From assembly GCA_964485195.1 (NCBI GenBank), contig CAZAIK010000008.1, positions 1 to 55,160 of the forward strand: a stretch of DNA of 55,160 bases, in the 5' to 3' direction. Below the pieces are notes generated by a model, which worked only from the letters and a program-made list of their open reading frames with translations, was not told the DNA's origin and ran no database searches. Positions 1,972-55,160 of this stretch are shown piece by piece. The first letter of the stretch is position 1, and each line of letters starts with the position of its first letter. Source of the stretch: an uncultured Methanosarcinales archaeon (GTDB taxonomy: Archaea; Nanobdellota; Nanobdellia; Woesearchaeales; CAIVOO01). Position numbers and translations under genes: made by a program.

Positions 1972-4017
1972 TCAATACCTGAATCCTAACTCTTTTCTTG
2001 CGAAGATGTATGCTGCTGTTAATGAAACCATGTCGTGGGCGTTGTGCTCCAGCACGGAATCTATTGGGGTTTCCCCTTTCAGGTGGCTGTGGTAAATCCG
2101 CGGGACCTGCTTTCCCGGGAGGTCTTCCCTTTGGCATCCCAGCATCCTGTCTATCTGGCTGAGCTTTCCGTTTTTGAGCCCGAAACCCCTGGCTGCCTGC
2201 CTCATGCAGTCAGCATAGATATCAACGTGGTTTCTTATCTGAGGTCCTGGCATTATGTTTGCAATGCTTCTCCTGTTTAGCATGTGCGCGTCAAAGCTCC
2301 TGCCGTTGTAGGTTACCATCAGGCTGTTCTTTTTTACGAGTTCGTTTACGTGCAGCAGGAGCGCTGCTTCTTCCCAGGGGTTCCTTGCAAATCCTATTTC
2401 AACCTGAAAGATGTTTCCCTGCCTGTAGGCCACGCCTGCTGATATGATTGAGTCTTTCTTGCTTAGGCCAGTGGTTTCCAGGTCCAGGAACAGCATTGGT
2501 TTGGTGCCTATCCTTCTCGTGTTGTTCCTGACGTATTGTGCAGCTGCAGTGTCTATTTCATCAAGCCCCACTTTGAAAAGCTGGAATGCACCTTCCTCAT
2601 TCTTTTTCTCCCCTCCATTTTTTCCAAACAACCGGGCGTGGTTGCTTTTCATCTGCTCCCCGTCCGCAAGTTTTTGGTTGATGTCTTGCAGTGTTTGTAT
2701 TGCATAATCCATTTTTCCCTTCTGGCTCGGCTTTGATATGAGGTGGGGAGTGTAGGCAGCTGTCCTGAACATCTGCATTAACATCTCCTGGCTTACAGGA
2801 AGTTCCTGTCTTGCGTTTTCCAGCGCACTCTCCAGGCTTTCCTCAAATTCGCTGCTGAGGAATGTCTTGATTCTCTGGTTGCAGGATAATGCTTCTGCAA
2901 CTTCCCTGTCTCTGGGGCCCAGAAGCACTGCCACCCTGGAATCTATTTTTTTCGGCCCGGTTCCGTTCTTCCTGAAGTAAAGGTTTTTGCTGCTGCCAAT
3001 CTCCTGTTTGAGTTTTTCTATATCCTTTGCATTCAGGTTCTTGTAATTCTTGACCTCAACTGCGCAGGGCTCTGCAGAAAGAACCACAACGTCCGGAAGG
3101 AAAAACCCTTCCTCACCTTCCCTGTAAACCCTGCACCCTTTGGAGTTGTAAACCTCTGATATCGGCGCGGGGAAGGTTTCCCTGAACTTTCCTGTCTGGA
3201 ATTCCGCGTTTGGGTCTGTGCTGCCTGTCAGCAGCAGGAGGAACTTGGTCATCTGCTCGCTGAGCTCCCCTATGTTCCAGACTTTTTTCGGCTTTTTGCT
3301 AGCAGCCTTTTTCTGGCCTTTTTCCTGGCGATGTCCGCTGCCAATTTCCTCTCTCGGAATTCCTGTTAACATTGATACGACCTCACTTATTGAAGAGCCT
3401 GTATGATAAGTGTCAGGGTGCCTTGCGATGAATTCCAGTCGGGTGTGCAGGGTTGGGTTGCTTGCCTTTATTCCTGATTTTGAGATGTCTCCTCTTTCAA
3501 AATAGACTGCCTGCAATTCCCCCCTAATGCTTTCAAGGCTTATGTCCTGATGGAAAGTCCTCCTGGCCATCCTTTCGTAAAGATCCGGAACTTCAGGATA
3601 AACAGAGTTTGCAATCTCCCTGAGTGTTTTGTGTCCGTTTTTTCTCTGCCTGCTCAGCTGCGCAGAGTATTGCTTGGGGAACTTTCTGGCGAATTCTGTT
3701 ATGGTGGGCAGCTTTGTTTTCCCTTTTTTCGCCTCGATAACAAGCTCAAGGGGGTACGCCTGCCTGATGCATTCTTCAAGCTCCTCAACAGGCCTTGCGG
3801 CGCAGGCAGGCTGCCATCCTGCTGCTTCTGCAATGGCGGCCGCGCCTCCAAGCCCTTTCTCCTTGGCAATCCTGTACAATGAATTTTCAATGTCCCTGCT
3901 GCCCTTTTCCCTCAGGACGCGAAAATTTACCGGGAAGGCCTTGCAAAACCCTGCCTCTTTGAGAATTCTGTCTACTTCTTTCTTGCTTTCTTCATTTAAC
4001 GCGCACTTTATATCCAA
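1972..4017 (-). CDS. Multidomain nuclease: central PD-(D/E)XK-like motif plus C-terminal RNase_H_2/YprB-like DEDD exonuclease
   Basis: PDVVV...VEVK; FLDLETTGL, VTYNGRSFD, HNAHD. Confidence 0.75.
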   Translation of the reverse strand: MDIKCALNEESKKEVDRILKEAGFCKAFPVNFRVLREKGSRDIENSLYRIAKEKGLGGAAAIAEAAGWQPACAARPVEELEECIRQAYPLELVIEAKKGKTKLPTITEFARKFPKQYSAQLSRQRKNGHKTLREIANSVYPEVPDLYERMARRTFHQDISLESIRGELQAVYFERGDISKSGIKASNPTLHTRLEFIARHPDTYHTGSSISEVVSMLTGIPREEIGSGHRQEKGQKKAASKKPKKVWNIGELSEQMTKFLLLLTGSTDPNAEFQTGKFRETFPAPISEVYNSKGCRVYREGEEGFFLPDVVVLSAEPCAVEVKNYKNLNAKDIEKLKQEIGSSKNLYFRKNGTGPKKIDSRVAVLLGPRDREVAEALSCNQRIKTFLSSEFEESLESALENARQELPVSQEMLMQMFRTAAYTPHLISKPSQKGKMDYAIQTLQDINQKLADGEQMKSNHARLFGKNGGEKKNEEGAFQLFKVGLDEIDTAAAQYVRNNTRRIGTKPMLFLDLETTGLSKKDSIISAGVAYRQGNIFQVEIGFARNPWEEAALLLHVNELVKKNSLMVTYNGRSFDAHMLNRRSIANIMPGPQIRNHVDIYADCMRQAARGFGLKNGKLSQIDRMLGCQREDLPGKQVPRIYHSHLKGETPIDSVLEHNAHDMVSLTAAYIFARKELGFRY

Positions 4018-49351: not shown

Positions 49352-49618
49352 ATGCCGGAAAAATACTTCAAGTGCGACCCAGAGGAATATGAATGCAGGG
49401 GCAAGGAGGGTCTGGCGAGGCTTGAGGAGATTATCAATAAAGGGGAAAGGTTCCTGAACATAGGCCTTCTGAAAGACGCCATTGAGCCAATGCTTACATT
49501 CATATCCTCAGGCGCAATTGCTGAACAGGTCAGGGATGCTTTCAAGGCAGGCGAGAATGATTACAACAAGACATCAAGAAGGTACAAGGAGATAAGAGAA
49601 AGATTCAGTAGCTTTTAG
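49352..49618 (+). CDS. Hypothetical protein
   Basis: ATG ORF with tttataaa about 25 bp upstream. Confidence 0.6.
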   Translation: MPEKYFKCDPEEYECRGKEGLARLEEIINKGERFLNIGLLKDAIEPMLTFISSGAIAEQVRDAFKAGENDYNKTSRRYKEIRERFSSF

Positions 49619-51071
49619 CAATGTAAACAACTTCCTTTGCTTCCTTTCCGCAGACTGCGCACTTGCCCTCTGGCTTCTCTTCCTTGCCGAAACGTGTTCC
49701 TCTCACAGTGCCTCCTATGACCTTCTCAATCTTTTCAGCGCATTCTTCCCCGTCCTTGCCTGTTGAGCAGAAGCCGCACTTCACTATCTTGTTCTGGCCA
49801 AGGGCTTTTTTAATTTCATCGACTGTTTTTGCATCAGCAATGCTCTTCTCAAAATCCGACTCTGTCTTTTTCAGCAGATTATTTGTGAATTCTTTTTCTA
49901 TCTTCTGCACTTCCTTTAACAGGTCATTTTGTTTTATTTGCGTTTTCCTGCCCAAGTCCCTCCTGAAAATAGTGGCTGTGTTTTTCTCTAAATCCTTTGG
50001 CCCGATTTCTATCCTTATTGGAACGCCTTTCAGCTCCCACTCGTTGAACTTGTGCCCTGCAGAATAGTCATCCCTGTCATCAAGCTTTACAGAGTATCCC
50101 TTCAGCTTGCTCTCAATTTCCTTTCCCTTCTTCAAAACTTCCTTTTTTGATTCTTCAAAGATTATGGGGACTATCACGATGTGAAGAGGGGCGACATCCC
50201 ACGGGAGGACAAGCCCCTTGTTGTCGCTGTGCAGCGCAATCATTGCCCCGTAAATCCTGCTGTGGGCCGGGCCGTAGCAGGTGATGTGGGCGTGTTTCTC
50301 CTCGCCGTCCTCGTCGGTGAATGTAACATTGAAGGGCTTTGAGAACTTTTGCCCAAGCAAGTGAGTGGAAGGCAGTTGCAGGACCTTTCCGCTTCCCATC
50401 AATGCATCAGCTGCAAATGTCTTGTCCGCGCCTGGAAACTTGTCCCATTCAGGCCTCTGGAAAAAGATGTGCGGGATCGCGAATTTCCCGTGCAGAACCT
50501 CATGGGTTGTTTCCATGTCCTCCCTGACCTGCGCCTTTGCATCCTCTTCAGCTGCAAAAACATTGTGGGCCTCTATCCAGTAAATCTCCCTGGTCCTGAA
50601 AAAGGGCCTGGTCATCTTTGTCTCGTGCCTGTAAACAGTGCAGGACTGGTATCTTTTCATCGGCAGGTCCTTGTAGCTCCTTACCCACAATGAATACATT
50701 GAATAAAATGCAGTTTCTGAAGTGGGCCTCAATGCCATCTTTTCATCAAGCTTTTCGCCCTTCCCGTGCTCTGTAATCCAGAAAACCTCAGGGGTAAAGC
50801 CCTCAATATGCTCTGACTCTGTCTTCAGGAGAGCTTCTGGAATGACCACAGGGAATGTCAGCGGGAGATGCCCTTTTTTCTCAAGAGTTTCCTCCATAAT
50901 CCGGTTCATCTTTTTGAGTGAGATGGTGGACCATTCCCTGTAAACCGGAAAGCCCTTGAGCTTGTACCTCACATCTGCCAGCTCTGCCTTCTGAAGAAGC
51001 TGGGTGAACCACTCTGAGAAATCCTCCTCTTTTTTGGCTGTTATTCCCAAGTCACTCTCTTTTTCTGCCAT
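49605..51071 (-). CDS. proS: Proline-tRNA ligase, archaeal/eukaryotic type
   Basis: FSEWF, LRPTSET, YRHETK..PFFRTRE, WELKGVPIRIEIGP, C-terminal AKSY. Confidence 0.96.
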   Translation of the reverse strand: MAEKESDLGITAKKEEDFSEWFTQLLQKAELADVRYKLKGFPVYREWSTISLKKMNRIMEETLEKKGHLPLTFPVVIPEALLKTESEHIEGFTPEVFWITEHGKGEKLDEKMALRPTSETAFYSMYSLWVRSYKDLPMKRYQSCTVYRHETKMTRPFFRTREIYWIEAHNVFAAEEDAKAQVREDMETTHEVLHGKFAIPHIFFQRPEWDKFPGADKTFAADALMGSGKVLQLPSTHLLGQKFSKPFNVTFTDEDGEEKHAHITCYGPAHSRIYGAMIALHSDNKGLVLPWDVAPLHIVIVPIIFEESKKEVLKKGKEIESKLKGYSVKLDDRDDYSAGHKFNEWELKGVPIRIEIGPKDLEKNTATIFRRDLGRKTQIKQNDLLKEVQKIEKEFTNNLLKKTESDFEKSIADAKTVDEIKKALGQNKIVKCGFCSTGKDGEECAEKIEKVIGGTVRGTRFGKEEKPEGKCAVCGKEAKEVVYIAKSY

Positions 51072-51239
51072 CAGAACAGTTATTAAAAAGGGGTATTTAA
51101 AGGTTTTTAAAGAAGATAAGAATTTTGAGTTCAGAATTCGGGCATATCTAATATTAACTTCAGAGTGGTAAAAGAAACGAAAGATTTATAAAGGAAATGT
51201 ATTTACATTAATTAACAAAATATATGGGAGAAAATAAAA

Positions 51240-51866
51240 ATGCCAGAATATGAATGTATACATACATGGGGTCCAGGTGCAGGTTGCGATAATAAACCAA
51301 TAGGCTTACTTTGTTATGCTCCAAGAGGCGAAGCAATTCCAAGAGTAGACTTATCTTGTGAAAGATTCGCGAATTATCATGGTCATCATGGCGGAATTGC
51401 GGTTTTACTTGCGTGGGAATTAAAAGGAACAAATTATGAGCAAGTAAAAGCTGAATTGAAAGAGAATAGAGATTTGTTTAAAGAACAAATAGGCCGAAAA
51501 TTTGATGGAAATACACTTCCAAATTTTGTTTCTCAAAGGGAAACTATCGAAGAAGGTGTTATGAAAGCTTACGATGCACTTGTTCGAATAGCTGATTCAA
51601 AATCAAAATTAAGTAGTATGGAACAGGTACAGGAAAGAAAACTTGAGGGATTAGACCCTTAGAAGAGAGATTATTTAGAGATAATTATGCCTCTCTTCAG
51701 CGTGTGGACCCAAATCATCCGGCTATTCAAGCAGTGAGTGTTGGAGAAAAGGGTATTTTGCTTCAGCAAGCTTTTTTTTGATAAATATGGGGATGATCCA
51801 AAAGAATTCAAAGCGAATGTATGTGAATATTTTGTTGCTTTGAAAATTGCTAATGGTTCTTGGTAA
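51240..51866 (+). pseudogene. Hypothetical cassette gene, probably interrupted (ORF stops at 51662)
   Basis: Coding-like sequence continues to an in-frame TAA at 51864-51866 that abuts the cassette arm. Confidence 0.5.
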
Positions 51867-51886
51867 TCTTTGCCACCTGGATTGTG

Positions 51887-51907
51887 AACAACATCGCGCT
51901 GTTATGT
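51887..51907. repeat. Cassette junction hairpin 1
   Basis: aacaaca-tcgcgc-tgttatgt. Confidence 0.75.
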
Positions 51908-51992
51908 GAGGTTGACCGATAGGTTTTTAAAGTAGCCATTATTACTATAATTATACTTCTTCTGGATTGAAATTGGGTTTAAGAGGCTTAAA

Positions 51993-52646
51993 ATGCAAAA
52001 TATTAAAGCAATAATTTTTGATTTTGATGGTGTAATAAATAATGGAGTTGAAGTCCATTATGATTTTTATAGAGAACTCTGTAAATCGCATAATATAAAA
52101 CCGCCATTTTCAGATAAAAAAGAATTTAGAGATTGGTTTGACCCAAGGGATTATAAACCAAACTATCGAAATTTAGGAATTTCTTTGAAAGATCCGAAAA
52201 ATATTCAATACAAGGATTATATTAAACAAGTTGGTATTCCGCTTATAGGAGGAATAAAAGAAGTAATAGAAAAATTAAGCAAAAAATACATCCTTGCAAT
52301 TGTCTCCACAAACCATAAAGAGATTATAGAACACCAACTTGAAGATTATGGAATATTGAAATTCTTTAAACCAATAATAGGAAATGGCGACATTTTCAAA
52401 ATTAAACCTCACCCTGAAGCATTGCTGAAATGTTTGGAAGAACTGAAATTAAGCAATAAAGAAGTGATTTACATAGGCGACATGGTTAGCGATACAGAAA
52501 CATCAAGAAATGCAAACATCAAAATCATTTCAGTAACTTGGGGGTGGTCTTCAAAAGAAGAATTGAAGAAAGCTAAACCAGATTGGATAGTAGACAATCC
52601 AAAAGAATTACATAAAGTCATTGAAAGGAGCTCGGAGGCAAATTGA
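51993..52646 (+). CDS. HAD-family hydrolase (phosphoglycolate phosphatase-like)
   Basis: IFDFDGVI, IVST, KPHP, YIGDMVSD. Confidence 0.92.
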   Translation: MQNIKAIIFDFDGVINNGVEVHYDFYRELCKSHNIKPPFSDKKEFRDWFDPRDYKPNYRNLGISLKDPKNIQYKDYIKQVGIPLIGGIKEVIEKLSKKYILAIVSTNHKEIIEHQLEDYGILKFFKPIIGNGDIFKIKPHPEALLKCLEELKLSNKEVIYIGDMVSDTETSRNANIKIISVTWGWSSKEELKKAKPDWIVDNPKELHKVIERSSEAN

Positions 52647-52668
52647 ATATAACATGGCGCTGTTGTAT
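52647..52668. repeat. Cassette junction hairpin 2
   Basis: atataaca-tggcgc-tgttgtat. Confidence 0.8.
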
Positions 52669-52769
52669 GTTTTTTCCGCAGGAAAAAATCGCGGAGTGAA
52701 ACGGAGCGACAGTATGACGCAGGGCTTGCGTTAAGTTTATCAATGCGCAAAAATACCAATATGATAACT

Positions 52770-53291
52770 ATGAAAAAAAAGATAATATTTTTTGATGGTG
52801 ATGGAACGCTTTGGCATCCAAAGAAAACAAAATATGCAAAGCATCCAGTTTGGCTATACAAAGACAAACGATTCAAAAATCATACAAATCATCTTACTAT
52901 GACGCCATCAGCGCTAGCAACTATCAAGAAATTGGAAAAAGAGGGCATAATCACTGTGGTTCTTTCGACCCATCCTCATCCCCCAAAAGAAGCAGATGCA
53001 ATCATCAAACACAAAATAAAGCACTTTAAGTTAGAAGAACTGTTTGATGAAATTCACGCAACAAGAGAATATCACGGGTCGAAAGGAGAATTTGTGTTGA
53101 AGGTTCTCAAGAGAAGAAAAATACCCAAATCAAAAGCGCTGATGGTTGGAGACAGCTACAAGTGGTACTACCAATCAGCAAAAGGTGTAGGGGTGGATGC
53201 TTTGCTCATTGAATCAGAATATGAACCGATGAAACATAAGGTAAGGAAAACCATCAAAAAATTAAGTGATATTCTTGCGCACATCTCTTAG
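52770..53291 (+). CDS. HAD-family hydrolase
   Basis: FFDGDGTLW, VLST, SKG, MVGDS. Confidence 0.88.
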   Translation: MKKKIIFFDGDGTLWHPKKTKYAKHPVWLYKDKRFKNHTNHLTMTPSALATIKKLEKEGIITVVLSTHPHPPKEADAIIKHKIKHFKLEELFDEIHATREYHGSKGEFVLKVLKRRKIPKSKALMVGDSYKWYYQSAKGVGVDALLIESEYEPMKHKVRKTIKKLSDILAHIS

Positions 53292-53310
53292 CAAGCCCGA
53301 GTAATATTGC

Positions 53311-53344
53311 ACATAACATCGGAAGTTCCTGTTATGTCTCCCGA
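53311..53344. repeat. Cassette junction hairpin 3
   Basis: acataaca-tcggaagttcc-tgttatgt; 53314-53344 is identical to 54195-54225. Confidence 0.9.
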
Positions 53345-53516
53345 ACGAAACGAAGTGGGGTTCTGGCGACCTGCGTCCGCAAAGTTGAGAAAAAGACCAA
53401 TCAATACAGTTCGGAGAGCATTAAAGGAAAATAAGCTAAGGCGGGCCTAAAAATCGAAAGATTTATATAGAAGTTAATACATATTAGTTATTAATTAATA
53501 AAAATTATTGATTAAA

Positions 53517-53795
53517 ATGTCAGAAACAATACAAGAACAAAAGTTAGAACATTCTCCTACTTTGAATACCGTGCTAATGGTAGAAGAAACCCTTAAAAAT
53601 ATGGATGAGAGTGTCATAACTATTGCTGAACTTAAAAGAAGGCTTCCAAAGCAAGTTAACCATAATACATTGAGAGTAATACTTGAATATTTAGAAGAAA
53701 GCAATAAAATAGCAGTAAGTATGAAGGGTATTACTTGGATACATAATCCTAATTCGAATTTAAGAAAAGCTATTGCAAATGGGCTTGAATTATGA
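53517..53795 (+). CDS. Winged-helix protein, putative antitoxin
   Basis: PTLNTVLMVE, ELKRRLPKQV, ILEYLEESNKI; 4-bp overlap with the next gene. Confidence 0.7.
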   Translation: MSETIQEQKLEHSPTLNTVLMVEETLKNMDESVITIAELKRRLPKQVNHNTLRVILEYLEESNKIAVSMKGITWIHNPNSNLRKAIANGLEL

Positions 53796-54145
53796 AAACT
53801 GTAAGGGCAATCTTATCTCCAGAAGCAGAAGAGATATACAAATATTTGAATGAACAAGCGCCTACTTCAAAGAATGAGCGTATGATATTAAATTCAGTGA
53901 ATAAGAAAGTTGAATTGATCAAAGCAAATCCTCATTATGGCAAACCAATAGCAAAGAAATTAATACCTGATGAATACAAGAAGAAGTATGGTGCGACAAA
54001 TTTATTTTGGGTTGAACTTCCCAGTTTTTGGAGAATGTTATATACACTTACAGATGGAAATACCGAGATAGAGATAATTGCTTTTGTTCTTGATGTGATT
54101 GATCACGACACTTATAATAAAAAGTTTGGTTACAAGAAGAAATAA
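53792..54145 (+). CDS. RelE-like toxin
   Basis: IKANPHYG, LFWVELPSFWRMLYTL, DHDTYNKKFGY. Confidence 0.65.
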   Translation: MKTVRAILSPEAEEIYKYLNEQAPTSKNERMILNSVNKKVELIKANPHYGKPIAKKLIPDEYKKKYGATNLFWVELPSFWRMLYTLTDGNTEIEIIAFVLDVIDHDTYNKKFGYKKK

Positions 54146-54190
54146 TTTTTAGTCCCGCCTCTTCTATTTTTTAGGTCTTTTTCTCAATTA

Positions 54191-54225
54191 AAACTAACAT
54201 CGGAAGTTCCTGTTATGTCTCCCGA
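54191..54225. repeat. Cassette junction hairpin 4
   Basis: aaactaaca-tcggaagttcc-tgttatgt. Confidence 0.9.
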
Positions 54226-54386
54226 GCCGATAGGCGAGAGCGCAGCGTGGTCGACCGAAGGGAGAGTTTTTGAGAATGCCGTCTATCAAAAGAGCGATGC
54301 GATATCCTCAAAAAGTGAAACTTTTTGGGACACCAGAAATCTTTGATTTCTTAGTGCATCAAGAACAAGGATAGAAGGGCTGGCTT

Positions 54387-55013
54387 TTATTCAATTATTT
54401 TATTTTGTATTAAGAACTTTTTAATAATCTCATACATGATTTTATATCCTTCAGCATTAGGATGGACACCATCAACTAATAATTTAGGATAATTTTCTTG
54501 CTTTGTAAATTCTGAGTAGATATCACAAAACAGTAAACTATTTTCTTCAGCAATTTTTTGTAGTATGTCATTGAATTGCTCAATAGTTTTATTACTAAAA
54601 TAAGTGTTTTCAAAAGGCATTAAAGATTCATCAACAGGAGGCAATCCAATAAGAATAACCTCTTTAGTTTGATTCTTAGCAATATCAACCATTTCACAAA
54701 CGTTATTTTCATAATCTTTTGGGTTTATTTGTATATTATCTGGGCTTCCTAAGCCACGAGAATCATTGGTTCCAATAGCAATAAGAATTACAAATTTATT
54801 ATCCGGAAAATAATATTTAATTCTTGATTCCGCTTCTATTTCGAATCTCTTCAATAAATCTGTTGATGAGTCTCCAGGTATTCCTAAATTATACAGAACA
54901 TTGTAAAAATCTTTTGATTCAAAGTATTCTTTCAATCTATTTGCCCATCCTGTGCTTGGCACAACACCTCTGCCAAATGTGATGCTATCTCCAAATGCCA
55001 GTATTCCATACAT
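54387..55013 (-). CDS. SGNH/GDSL hydrolase
   Basis: FGDSIT, NLGIPG, IGTND, DGVHPN. Confidence 0.93.
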   Translation of the reverse strand: MYGILAFGDSITFGRGVVPSTGWANRLKEYFESKDFYNVLYNLGIPGDSSTDLLKRFEIEAESRIKYYFPDNKFVILIAIGTNDSRGLGSPDNIQINPKDYENNVCEMVDIAKNQTKEVILIGLPPVDESLMPFENTYFSNKTIEQFNDILQKIAEENSLLFCDIYSEFTKQENYPKLLVDGVHPNAEGYKIMYEIIKKFLIQNKIIE

Positions 55014-55096
55014 GATATAAAAGAGAAAGAAATATGTATTTAAAAGTTCTTCTAAAAGTCCAGCCCTCTTCTACTATCTAGGCATTTTCAAAAGTT

Positions 55097-55125
55097 GAAA
55101 CTAACATCTGCAGCCTGTTAGTTTC
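55097..55125. repeat. Cassette junction hairpin 5
   Basis: gaaactaaca-tctgcagcc-tgttagtttc, perfect 10-bp inverted repeat. Confidence 0.88.
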
Positions 55126-55160
55126 CCTCGATAGAGGTTGGATTTTAGTGCAACGTTCCC

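Follow-up and report, generated by a model that had tools for sequence, protein, structure and literature searches.

How did five unrelated, AT-rich gene modules, each closed by a small palindrome, come to stand side by side at the 3' end of this stretch of archaeal DNA? The window, that is, the whole stretch that was analyzed, is the entire contig CAZAIK010000008.1 (55,160 nucleotides; hereafter C8) of assembly GCA_964485195.1, and its source genome (G000), from an uncultured member of the Woesearchaeales, measures 1.13 Mb in 32 contigs and is 99.5% complete as judged by marker genes. An initial annotation had interpreted the modules as gene cassettes joined by ultra-short hairpins that resemble the attC sites of integrons. 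On balance, and with moderate confidence, we favor the view that the array (Table 1) is an integron-like cassette platform, akin also to the mobile integrative elements that exploit Xer (IMEXs), that would use the recombinase XerA and dif-like sites.

The five palindromes, which had been described as having the form AACA-N6/9/11-TGTT, do lie at the borders of the modules (sites S1 to S5), with 6 nt between AACA and TGTT at S1 and S2, 11 nt at S3 and S4, and 9 nt at S5. They are not a chance occurrence. The pattern AACAT-N1..12-CTGTT is found nine times in the window, as compared to 1.77 ± 1.22 times in shuffled sequences (none of 100 shuffles reached nine), and five of the nine copies fall within the last 3.3 kb, all on the plus strand and each separating two transcription units. 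The pattern TAACAT-N2..14-CTGTTR occurs only seven times in the whole 1.13-Mb genome, four times in the array and once at the start of another contig (C7:1-20). The 31 bases that S3 and S4 had been said to share are indeed identical (53314-53344 and 54195-54225). As an independent measure, we built a profile from 36 sites at 20 loci in other genomes of the same order, with no site from G000; conservation at those positions is built in, since AATT-N4..9 had to be present upstream of AACA..TGTT for a site to be selected. Searched with nhmmer, this foreign profile returned as its top six matches S3, S4, C7:1-24, S2, S5, and S1 (E 4e-6 to 0.16), every other match in G000 having an E value of 2 or greater. 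The motif thus retrieves exactly the five annotated sites and a sixth at the start of C7, and no further site-like sequence was found in the 32 contigs. A match at 3354-3369 (TCGGAATTCCTGTTAA, E 2) lies inside a 681-aa open reading frame (ORF) and was set aside as chance.

Alignment of the sites changes the picture of the palindromes themselves. An AATTG box lies about 5 nt upstream of the left arm, TAACATC, which is followed by a GC-rich center, the right arm, CCTGTTA, and a right-flank module. Because the box, the flank modules, and cassette-specific arms surround the palindrome, what had appeared to be an isolated hairpin of only 20-30 bp forms, on this alignment, the conserved core, TAACATC-spacer-CCTGTTA, within a junction about 100-150 nt long. 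The core itself is about 20 nt long and has a single AAC/GTT pair, with AAC...GTT invariant in the aligned sites and a TC bulge on the 5' side that makes the site asymmetric. Between TAACATC and CCTGTTA there are 6 nt at the C7 site, 7 at S3 and S4, 5 at S5, and about 3 at S1 and S2; the canonical spacer across the order is GGAATT, and the canonical form fits an 11-6-11 layout. All sites of G000 are direct repeats on one strand. S1 and S2, which are closest to the prolyl-tRNA synthetase gene proS and have the shortest centers, may be fossil sites.

The right-flank modules fall into families that recur between genomes (for example, ..TTTTTTCTGCAAGAAAAAA.., ..CCCGA..GAGAGCGCAGCG.., and ..GATTTTTAGTGCAACG..), and one such module is present at each of S2, S3, S4, S5, and the C7 site. 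The family at the extreme end of C8 also trails sites in five other genomes (G307, G267, G184, G024, and G376). Examples are found at 52669-52700, 53338-53384, 54219-54266, and 55126-55160, and in other loci (L038 286-330; L045; L052). In some right-flank hairpins the stems differ and the loop reads TACGNAGTG, and a box resembling GYGCARCG(T)CC occurs about 25-45 nt downstream. The modules could be accessory recombination sequences or structured RNA; an Rfam scan of 51000-55160 with E values up to 1 gave no match.

A second feature of the cassettes is that their noncoding left and right ends are inverted repeats of each other. In local alignments the cognate ends of the four complete cassettes of G000 scored 22, 22, 30, and 21, and no noncognate pair scored above 17. 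Over 21 site-to-site intervals from seven loci, the cognate median was 19, as against 15 for 74 noncognate pairs (Mann-Whitney p 0.005). When the ends were joined as they would be in a circle and folded, cassettes 3 and 4 beat noncognate joins by 6-14 kcal/mol (for cassette 3, -37.1 versus -23.5 to -24.9 kcal/mol); the folds of cassettes 2 and 5 were no better than those of noncognate joins, with the 150-nt fold window excluding the outer arm of cassette 5. Pairing of these private arms spans the gene instead of the junction, as would be the case if a crossover at its center had split a palindrome; the opposite holds for a miniature inverted-repeat transposable element (MITE), whose inverted ends flank the element itself. 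The arms thus bear on an explanation in which MITEs or repetitive extragenic palindromic (REP)-like sequences landed in an ordinary AT-rich island, between genes that do not move as cassettes. Conserved junction modules that recur between genomes are what such insertions would produce, but the arms here are particular to a cassette and lie on either side of its gene, and those that meet at one junction do not match (four of four in G000). Moreover, a gene is shared between families along with its ends, the borders being in the core, as described below, and G000 has no match to a Y1-HUH transposase or to a serine recombinase in a search that did not extend to DDE families. We consider insertion of such elements improbable.

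The cassettes are shared between distant genomes. Positions 53437-54216 are 88% identical over 783 nt to a stretch in G125, a member of another family, where the neighbors are different; the shared segment spans the outer left arm, both genes of cassette 4, and the remainder to the end of S4. (The prolyl-tRNA synthetase and XerA proteins of G125 are 39% and 38% identical, respectively, to those of G000.) A cassette with a 141-aa ORF likewise links G307 and G267, of two further families, at 93% identity over 581 nt, and its shared part starts with CCTGTTA and ends with TAACAT, past variable bases between AATTG and the arm. The cassettes are therefore horizontally shared, in accord with the gene-capture platform that had been proposed. 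In two half-sites the break falls where the spacer ends on the right: in one, TAACATCGGAATT is followed by unrelated DNA, and in the other, unrelated DNA ending in AAATT is followed by CCTGTTA. At these points an 11-6-11 site would be cut by its tyrosine recombinase, and cleavage by XerA at the spacer borders has been described (PMC3646895). To judge from these borders, the core behaves more like an Xer/dif core than like attC. The identical cores around cassette 4, the cassette that has a near-identical foreign copy, would be the trace of a recent insertion.

Sharing of this kind also bears on the simplest alternative, that the island is static and its palindromes, uninvolved in recombination, serve as protein-binding, terminator, or insulator sites. 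Each site does lie between convergent or tandem transcription units, and T-runs follow several of the ORFs; archaeal termination, however, is not known to need hairpins, the core is kept across many families while the adjoining genes differ, cassettes are common to genomes at 88-93% identity, and the sites are linked to xerA, as shown below. We regard a static island as very improbable. Consistent with the expectation that gene content would vary, a DNA search of the whole array against 20 relatives (the same-genus genome and five genomes of the same family included) gave no collinear match and thus no sign of a fixed, syntenic order. It returned only short junction modules and, elsewhere in the same-genus genome (G001), a 328-nt match of 68% identity to the array's winged helix-turn-helix (wHTH) gene.

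How widespread are the sites? Order-wide tallies were made over 401 genomes, G000 included, to which three unpublished genomes (G137, G188, and G212) contribute one site match each. Among the matches listed, TAACAT-N3..10-CCTGTTAT occurred 97 times in 78 of the 401 genomes (G000 again included), as compared to about 37 matches for the reversed-pattern control, and the 21-mer TAACATCGGAATTCCTGTTAT was found unchanged in genomes of several families. A strict site pattern matched only two other genomes among 40 relatives and had no match in G001; a looser pattern was dropped when its reversed control gave equal numbers of matches. A covariance model built from 40 aligned sites and applied with E up to 0.01 recognized sites in at least 27 of 151 genomes of the order, six of which, including G000, had supplied training sites. 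At least 16 of these 27 had two or more matches, often 0.6-1.5 kb apart and on one strand. With 39 candidates scored per genome, this search sets a lower bound. In one array of another family (L040 34-530 and 3842-4337; G264:C4), a 497-nt stretch comprising a site and both of its flanks is present twice, the copies being 98% identical and 3.8 kb from each other.

Which enzyme would act at these sites? None of the cassette ORFs (HAD, HAD, wHTH/ParE-like, SGNH, HD, and an ORFan) is a recombinase. The genome contains a single match to PF00589, an intact gene for a 301-aa protein at C13:3-908, and a remnant of the same gene lies on C7; a candidate recombinase is thus encoded outside the window, as had been anticipated. 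The protein passes the NCBIfam equivalog NF040815, XerA_Arch (230 bits; cut-off 220), aligns collinearly from end to end with XerA of Pyrococcus abyssi, and shows the HxxR and tyrosine motifs. It fails the model for integron integrases (IntI), TIGR02249, scoring 225 bits in two stretches against a cut-off of 265, and its residues 186-191 put five residues opposite 47 of Vibrio cholerae IntI4 (2a3v, 193-240), such that the approximately 40-residue IntI insert is absent. Of the enzymes named in advance as candidates, an Xer tyrosine recombinase was therefore found, and IntI and Y1-HUH enzymes were not.

These properties of the recombinase weigh against a decayed classical integron, that is, a cluster of ordinary attC sites that has lost its integrase (CALIN). 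Archaeal integrons have been described with an IntI that carries the additional domain and attCs of bacterial type, and Data S1 of the same report lists six Woesearchaeales metagenome-assembled genomes with 2-12 attCs and no IntI (Ghaly et al. 2022, PMC9668308). A toxin-antitoxin pair, HAD proteins, hydrolases, and an ORFan are cargo typical of integrons, and AAC/GTT boxes are present. Yet in a genome that is 99.5% complete there is no IntI, only a relative without its insert; the cassettes are bordered within a 20-nt core instead of at the 3' terminus of a palindrome of 55-140 nt; pairing of the arms spans the gene, not the junction; and the cassettes appear to bring their own promoters. We attach little probability to a CALIN. 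The array is not a member of the classical integron family, and the initial annotation was right to set it apart.

The gene for the recombinase also neighbors the array. In G001, about 1.5 kb beyond proS, there are orthologs of C7:1852-2661 and C7:2748-3227 in the same orientations, from which it follows that the end of C8 and the start of C7 are neighbors; the array between proS and the C7 genes would then consist of 4.1 kb, an unassembled gap, and 0.75 kb. On C7, the site at the start is followed by an HD-domain cassette (132-695; Pfam HD, E 6.6e-15), a degenerate sequence resembling a left arm, and then, on the opposite strand, the last 23 codons of xerA (C7:754-830; L002). This remnant matches C13:1-77 (L001) at 76 of 77 nt, so the 3' end of xerA is present twice in G000, which reflects either a past rearrangement or two arrangements within the population. 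In G000, as in G001, the array borders on xerA at that gene's 3' end. In three genomes a left-arm half-site, AATTG-N4-TAACATS and then TATTAW, is found about 20-190 nt from xerA: in G001 it is downstream on the opposite strand, and in G032 and G267 it is upstream on the same strand. In the xerA-centered loci of ten relatives no full site was found, and half-sites were found only in G001 and G032. In G013, of another family, an AT-rich island with a site and a cassette that has 16-nt perfect private arms adjoins a 94-aa N-terminal fragment of xerA (L018 15053-15337; G013:C9), which lies between the island and a thioredoxin-like gene and proS. This arrangement suggests an old proS-xerA-array neighborhood. 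Of 44 xerA-like matches in 41 genomes, 17 start less than 2 kb from the first base of their contig and two more lie 0.9 kb or less from the far end, which fits assembly breaks beside the gene. A metagenome scan with XerA yielded 15 loci, at up to 56% identity over the best segment and up to 41% over the full length, and site model R1 detected no site in the nine of these loci that were scanned with it.

A cassette consists of a promoter and one or two genes bounded on either side by half of the TAACATC/spacer/CCTGTTA core. Read along the array, it begins with a right arm (CCTGTTA...) and closes with the left arm that follows (...TAACATC). We propose that both arms are bound by the one XerA-type recombinase of the host and that strands are exchanged at the edges of the spacer; circular cassettes would enter a resident site and leave again, as is the case for integron integrases and IMEXs. 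Since the ends of a cassette are complementary, an excised circle would carry the core inside a long private palindrome. The platform may be active at present. More tentatively, and here we fall short of conviction, a housekeeping-type XerA might double as the cassette integrase, with circles bearing folded private arms circulating between families, as an analog of integrons or a representative of their ancestral type.

Several observations weigh against recombination by XerA at a duplex dif-like site. No product of recombination, whether capture or excision, was seen in the sequencing-run data (runs X1 and X3 among them), which are Logan contigs and not reads. The role of the sites as chromosomal dif is putative only. 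The intact xerA is on a separate contig, with only the 77-nt remnant physically joined to the array, and most site-bearing genomes have no xerA on the contig of the site. Many of the 21 cognate pairs of arms score at background, the clear excess being that in four of four G000 cassettes; the background-level pairs probably stem in part from long intervals that hold several cassettes. Finally, AACA and TGTT stand anywhere from 6 to 12 nt apart over 38 sites (10 nt in 19, 8 in nine, 6 in three, 9 in three, 11 in two, and 7 and 12 in one each) and 6, 6, 11, 11, 9, and 10 nt apart in G000. This variation counts against the proposal because a double-stranded Xer core should have a fixed spacer, archaeal dif having one of 6 bp (PMC2958812).

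The palindromy of the center is kept by compensatory change. Of the cells in the center 96% are paired, as compared to 35-60% in slid controls, and there are 19 double changes versus 4.8 ± 3.2 in shuffles, none of 500 shuffles reaching 19. A hairpin would accord with a covarying palindromic center at least as well as a duplex spacer does. The variable distance, the compensatory palindromy, and the asymmetric TC bulge lead us to keep as the main rival the same platform acting on folded single-stranded DNA, as with integron attC or the attP of CTX phage. CTX phage integrates via a hairpin. Here a TAACA/TGTTA hairpin with a bulged TC and a variable GC-rich stem would sit atop the private stem and be read by shape, one strand being exchanged. 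In addition to the covariation, center length varies with dyad symmetry kept, the private arms would close a long stem only in an excised circle, and AAC...GTT is invariant, as in the R boxes of attC. But a hairpin of about 9 bp is too short for two recombinase monomers, the spacer-edge breakpoints fit a duplex core, and dyad symmetry is also explicable by binding of a homodimer. Furthermore, the recombinase lacks the IntI insert that reads the extrahelical bases of attC (PMC9668308). We judge a folded substrate unlikely, albeit a serious contender.

Two joints in the run data were considered and not counted as excision products. A 162-nt contig from run X3 joins an S3-type left flank (53297-53324) to an S5-type right flank (55114-55158), skipping 1789 nt, through the canonical GGAATT core and with a different pairing of flank families. 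It was discounted because its left side is only 28 nt long and the flank families recur in other organisms; the contig comes from another sample, and the joint is probably from another organism. The second joint, from 52724 to 53298, defies interpretation: each of its sides is 20 nt long, and they touch the region of cassette 3's private arms. Logan contigs break at the repeated 31-mer, as expected for repeats. In run X1 a continuation of the loose end beyond S5 was seen, and the cassette that follows S5 is absent from the 32 contigs.

The features of the array are collected in Table 1. The Pfam assignments agree with the HAD, HAD, and SGNH cargo of the initial annotation, and its other particulars hold as well: the modules are AT-rich (33-35% G+C versus 43% over C8), one cassette is inverted, its SGNH/GDSL gene lying on the minus strand, and boxes resembling the B recognition element and TATA box (BRE/TATA) can be recognized by eye within cassettes (for example, 51176-51195 and 53451-53470). 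The wHTH-RelE pair stands in part: the ParE/RelE-like match is weak (22.2 bits versus a Pfam cut-off of 23) and the wHTH assignment comes from below-cut-off matches only. The two genes are a probable toxin-antitoxin pair. Module 1, called a probable pseudogene, proved to be a 140-aa ORFan with homologs in none of 300 other genomes of the order, so there is no homolog with which to compare its length and the pseudogene reading is not demonstrated. Homologs of the SGNH protein are patchy, occurring in 38 of the 401 genomes (G000 and the unpublished G371 counted) and in none of six genomes of its own family; of 11 such loci examined for the orientation of cargo between arms, one (in G151) had a site within 1.5 kb. 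In another family, G025:C14:12382-12603 is a fragment that is 84% identical to SGNH residues 1-74 and has an internal stop; it looks like a truncated copy of this cargo.

Table 1. Sites, cassettes, and private arms at the 3' end of C8 (window coordinates)
Feature	Position	Strand	Description and evidence
proS	49605..51071	-	Archaeal-type prolyl-tRNA synthetase, left bound of array; Pfam tRNA-synt_2b, HGTP_anticodon, ProRS-C_1; left-side synteny with G001
S0	51067..51084	+	Possible degenerate first site CATCAGAACAGTTAT; recognized by eye; overlaps proS start codon; missed by hidden Markov model and covariance model
Cassette 1	51085..51886	+	ORFan ORF 51240-51662 (140 aa); BRE/TATA-like box 51176-51195; no Pfam family
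S1	51887..51907	+	Shortened center AACA-TCGCGC-TGTT; nhmmer E 0.16; site model R1 29.7 bits
Cassette 2 cargo	51993..52646	+	HAD-family hydrolase; Pfam HAD_2, E 9.5e-35
S2	52647..52668	+	Shortened center, then right-flank hairpin GTTTTTTCCGCAGGAAAAAA; nhmmer E 0.041; hairpin recurs in other genomes
Cassette 3 arms	52722-52729 and 53291-53298		Cognate score 22 versus <=16
Cassette 3 cargo	52743..53291	+	Second HAD-family phosphatase, unrelated to that of cassette 2; Pfam HAD_2, E 7.2e-12
S3	53311..53337	+	Core TAACATC-GGAAGTT-CCTGTTAT; nhmmer E 4.4e-6
Cassette 4 left arms	53385..53454	+	Inner 53385-53398, outer 53428-53454
Cassette 4 cargo	53508..54145	+	Small wHTH-like 53508-53795 overlapping ParE/RelE-like 53792-54145; weak Pfam matches
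Cassette 4 right arms	54145..54187	+	Inner 54174-54187 (14/14 complementary), outer 54145-54171 (27 nt, 78%)
S4	54191..54218	+	Core identical to S3; nhmmer E 4.9e-6; site model R1 51 bits
Cassette 5 left arms	54267..54384	+	Inner 54267-54280, outer 54368-54384; cognate score 21 versus <=16
Cassette 5 cargo	54387..55013	-	SGNH/GDSL hydrolase, inverted relative to site orientation; Pfam Lipase_GDSL_2, E 1.8e-29
Cassette 5 right arms	55058..55093	+	55081-55093 and 55058-55079, complementary to left arms
S5	55097..55125	+	Core TAACATC-TGCAG-CCTGTTAG; nhmmer E 0.11; site model R1 37.5 bits
Left-end module of next cassette	55126..55160	+	Start only (..GATAGAGG..TTTTAGTGCAACGTTCCC); cut by contig end

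As to the surroundings of the array, an archaeal host agrees with the archaeal-type prolyl-tRNA synthetase, the XerA_Arch match, and the BRE/TATA-like promoters. The synthetase is only 44% identical to that of G001 but 57% identical to its counterpart in G264, which belongs to another family, and XerA is 70% identical to that of G001; the proS next to the array may thus be a replacement itself. The opposite end of C8 is likewise AT-rich (34% G+C over 2 kb), with ORFs on the minus strand for a Fic/DOC-domain protein and an NYN-domain protein (26-955 and 1124-1825), and the hidden Markov model found no site-like sequence near it. It may be an island of a different kind.

How does the platform that we propose compare with known systems? 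Like integrons, it is a one-directional array of short, unrelated, horizontally shared cassettes separated by imperfect palindromes with a conserved AAC...GTT; it adjoins a tyrosine recombinase of the Xer/IntI branch and includes a toxin-antitoxin pair and an ORFan in its cargo. Unlike integrons, it has a recombinase without the IntI insert and a core of about 20 nt within which the crossover would fall, splitting the palindrome of each cassette onto its ends. In attC, an imperfect palindrome of 55-140 nt with R''-L''...L'-R' boxes and extrahelical bases, crossover takes place at G/TT of R'. Integron cassettes are mostly promoterless and read from Pc, whereas those here appear to have promoters of their own, and attI lies at the 5' end of intI, whereas the array of this genus borders the recombinase gene at its 3' end.

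The pdif sites of Acinetobacter plasmids are inverted and plasmid-borne, in contrast to the direct repeats of a chromosomal array at a conserved locus seen here. The modules that they bound are otherwise similar, being small, Xer-site-bounded groups of genes, toxin-antitoxin pairs included, that are shared between replicons (PMC7399989). IMEXs (the CTX, TLC, and VGJ phages and the gonococcal island; PMC5357621, PMC4246890) also form tandem arrays bounded by repeated dif-like sites and have no recombinase of their own, relying on the host's chromosome-resolution enzyme at a dif-like site, as we propose here. They differ in being phages or islands and not single-gene cassettes of 0.6-0.9 kb; in addition, the host here is an archaeon with one XerA and no XerC, XerD, or FtsK, and each element has private palindromic arms. 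In the accessible text of a 2021 review of archaeal tyrosine recombinases, neither "IMEX" nor "DPANN" occurs. In archaeal dif, arms of 11 bp enclose a spacer of 6 bp, with conserved flanks, and the site of Thermococcales does not lie beside xerA (Cortez et al. 2010, PMC2958812). The present system has in common with the XerA/dif systems of P. abyssi, Thermococcales, and Sulfolobales the same NCBIfam equivalog, a core readable as 11-6-11 with near-symmetric arms, and conserved flanks beside the core. The difference is that dif is single-copy, whereas here there are at least six copies, with variable centers, gene cargo between them, and linkage to xerA.

Finally, we found no published description of XerA-linked cassette arrays in a full-text literature search, and integron finders keyed to IntI and full-length attC would overlook such arrays or call them CALINs. 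A minimal pair of a recombinase and a site of about 21 bp is also a candidate genetic tool in archaea. If the proposal is correct, the array would supply a tangible intermediate that joins Xer/dif to IntI/attC, as protein phylogeny has long led one to assume; on the more tentative reading, it would show how IntI/attC could have arisen from Xer/dif. It would also mean that DPANN archaea, with their tiny genomes and dependence on hosts, sample and swap accessory genes with no enzyme beyond their segregation recombinase.

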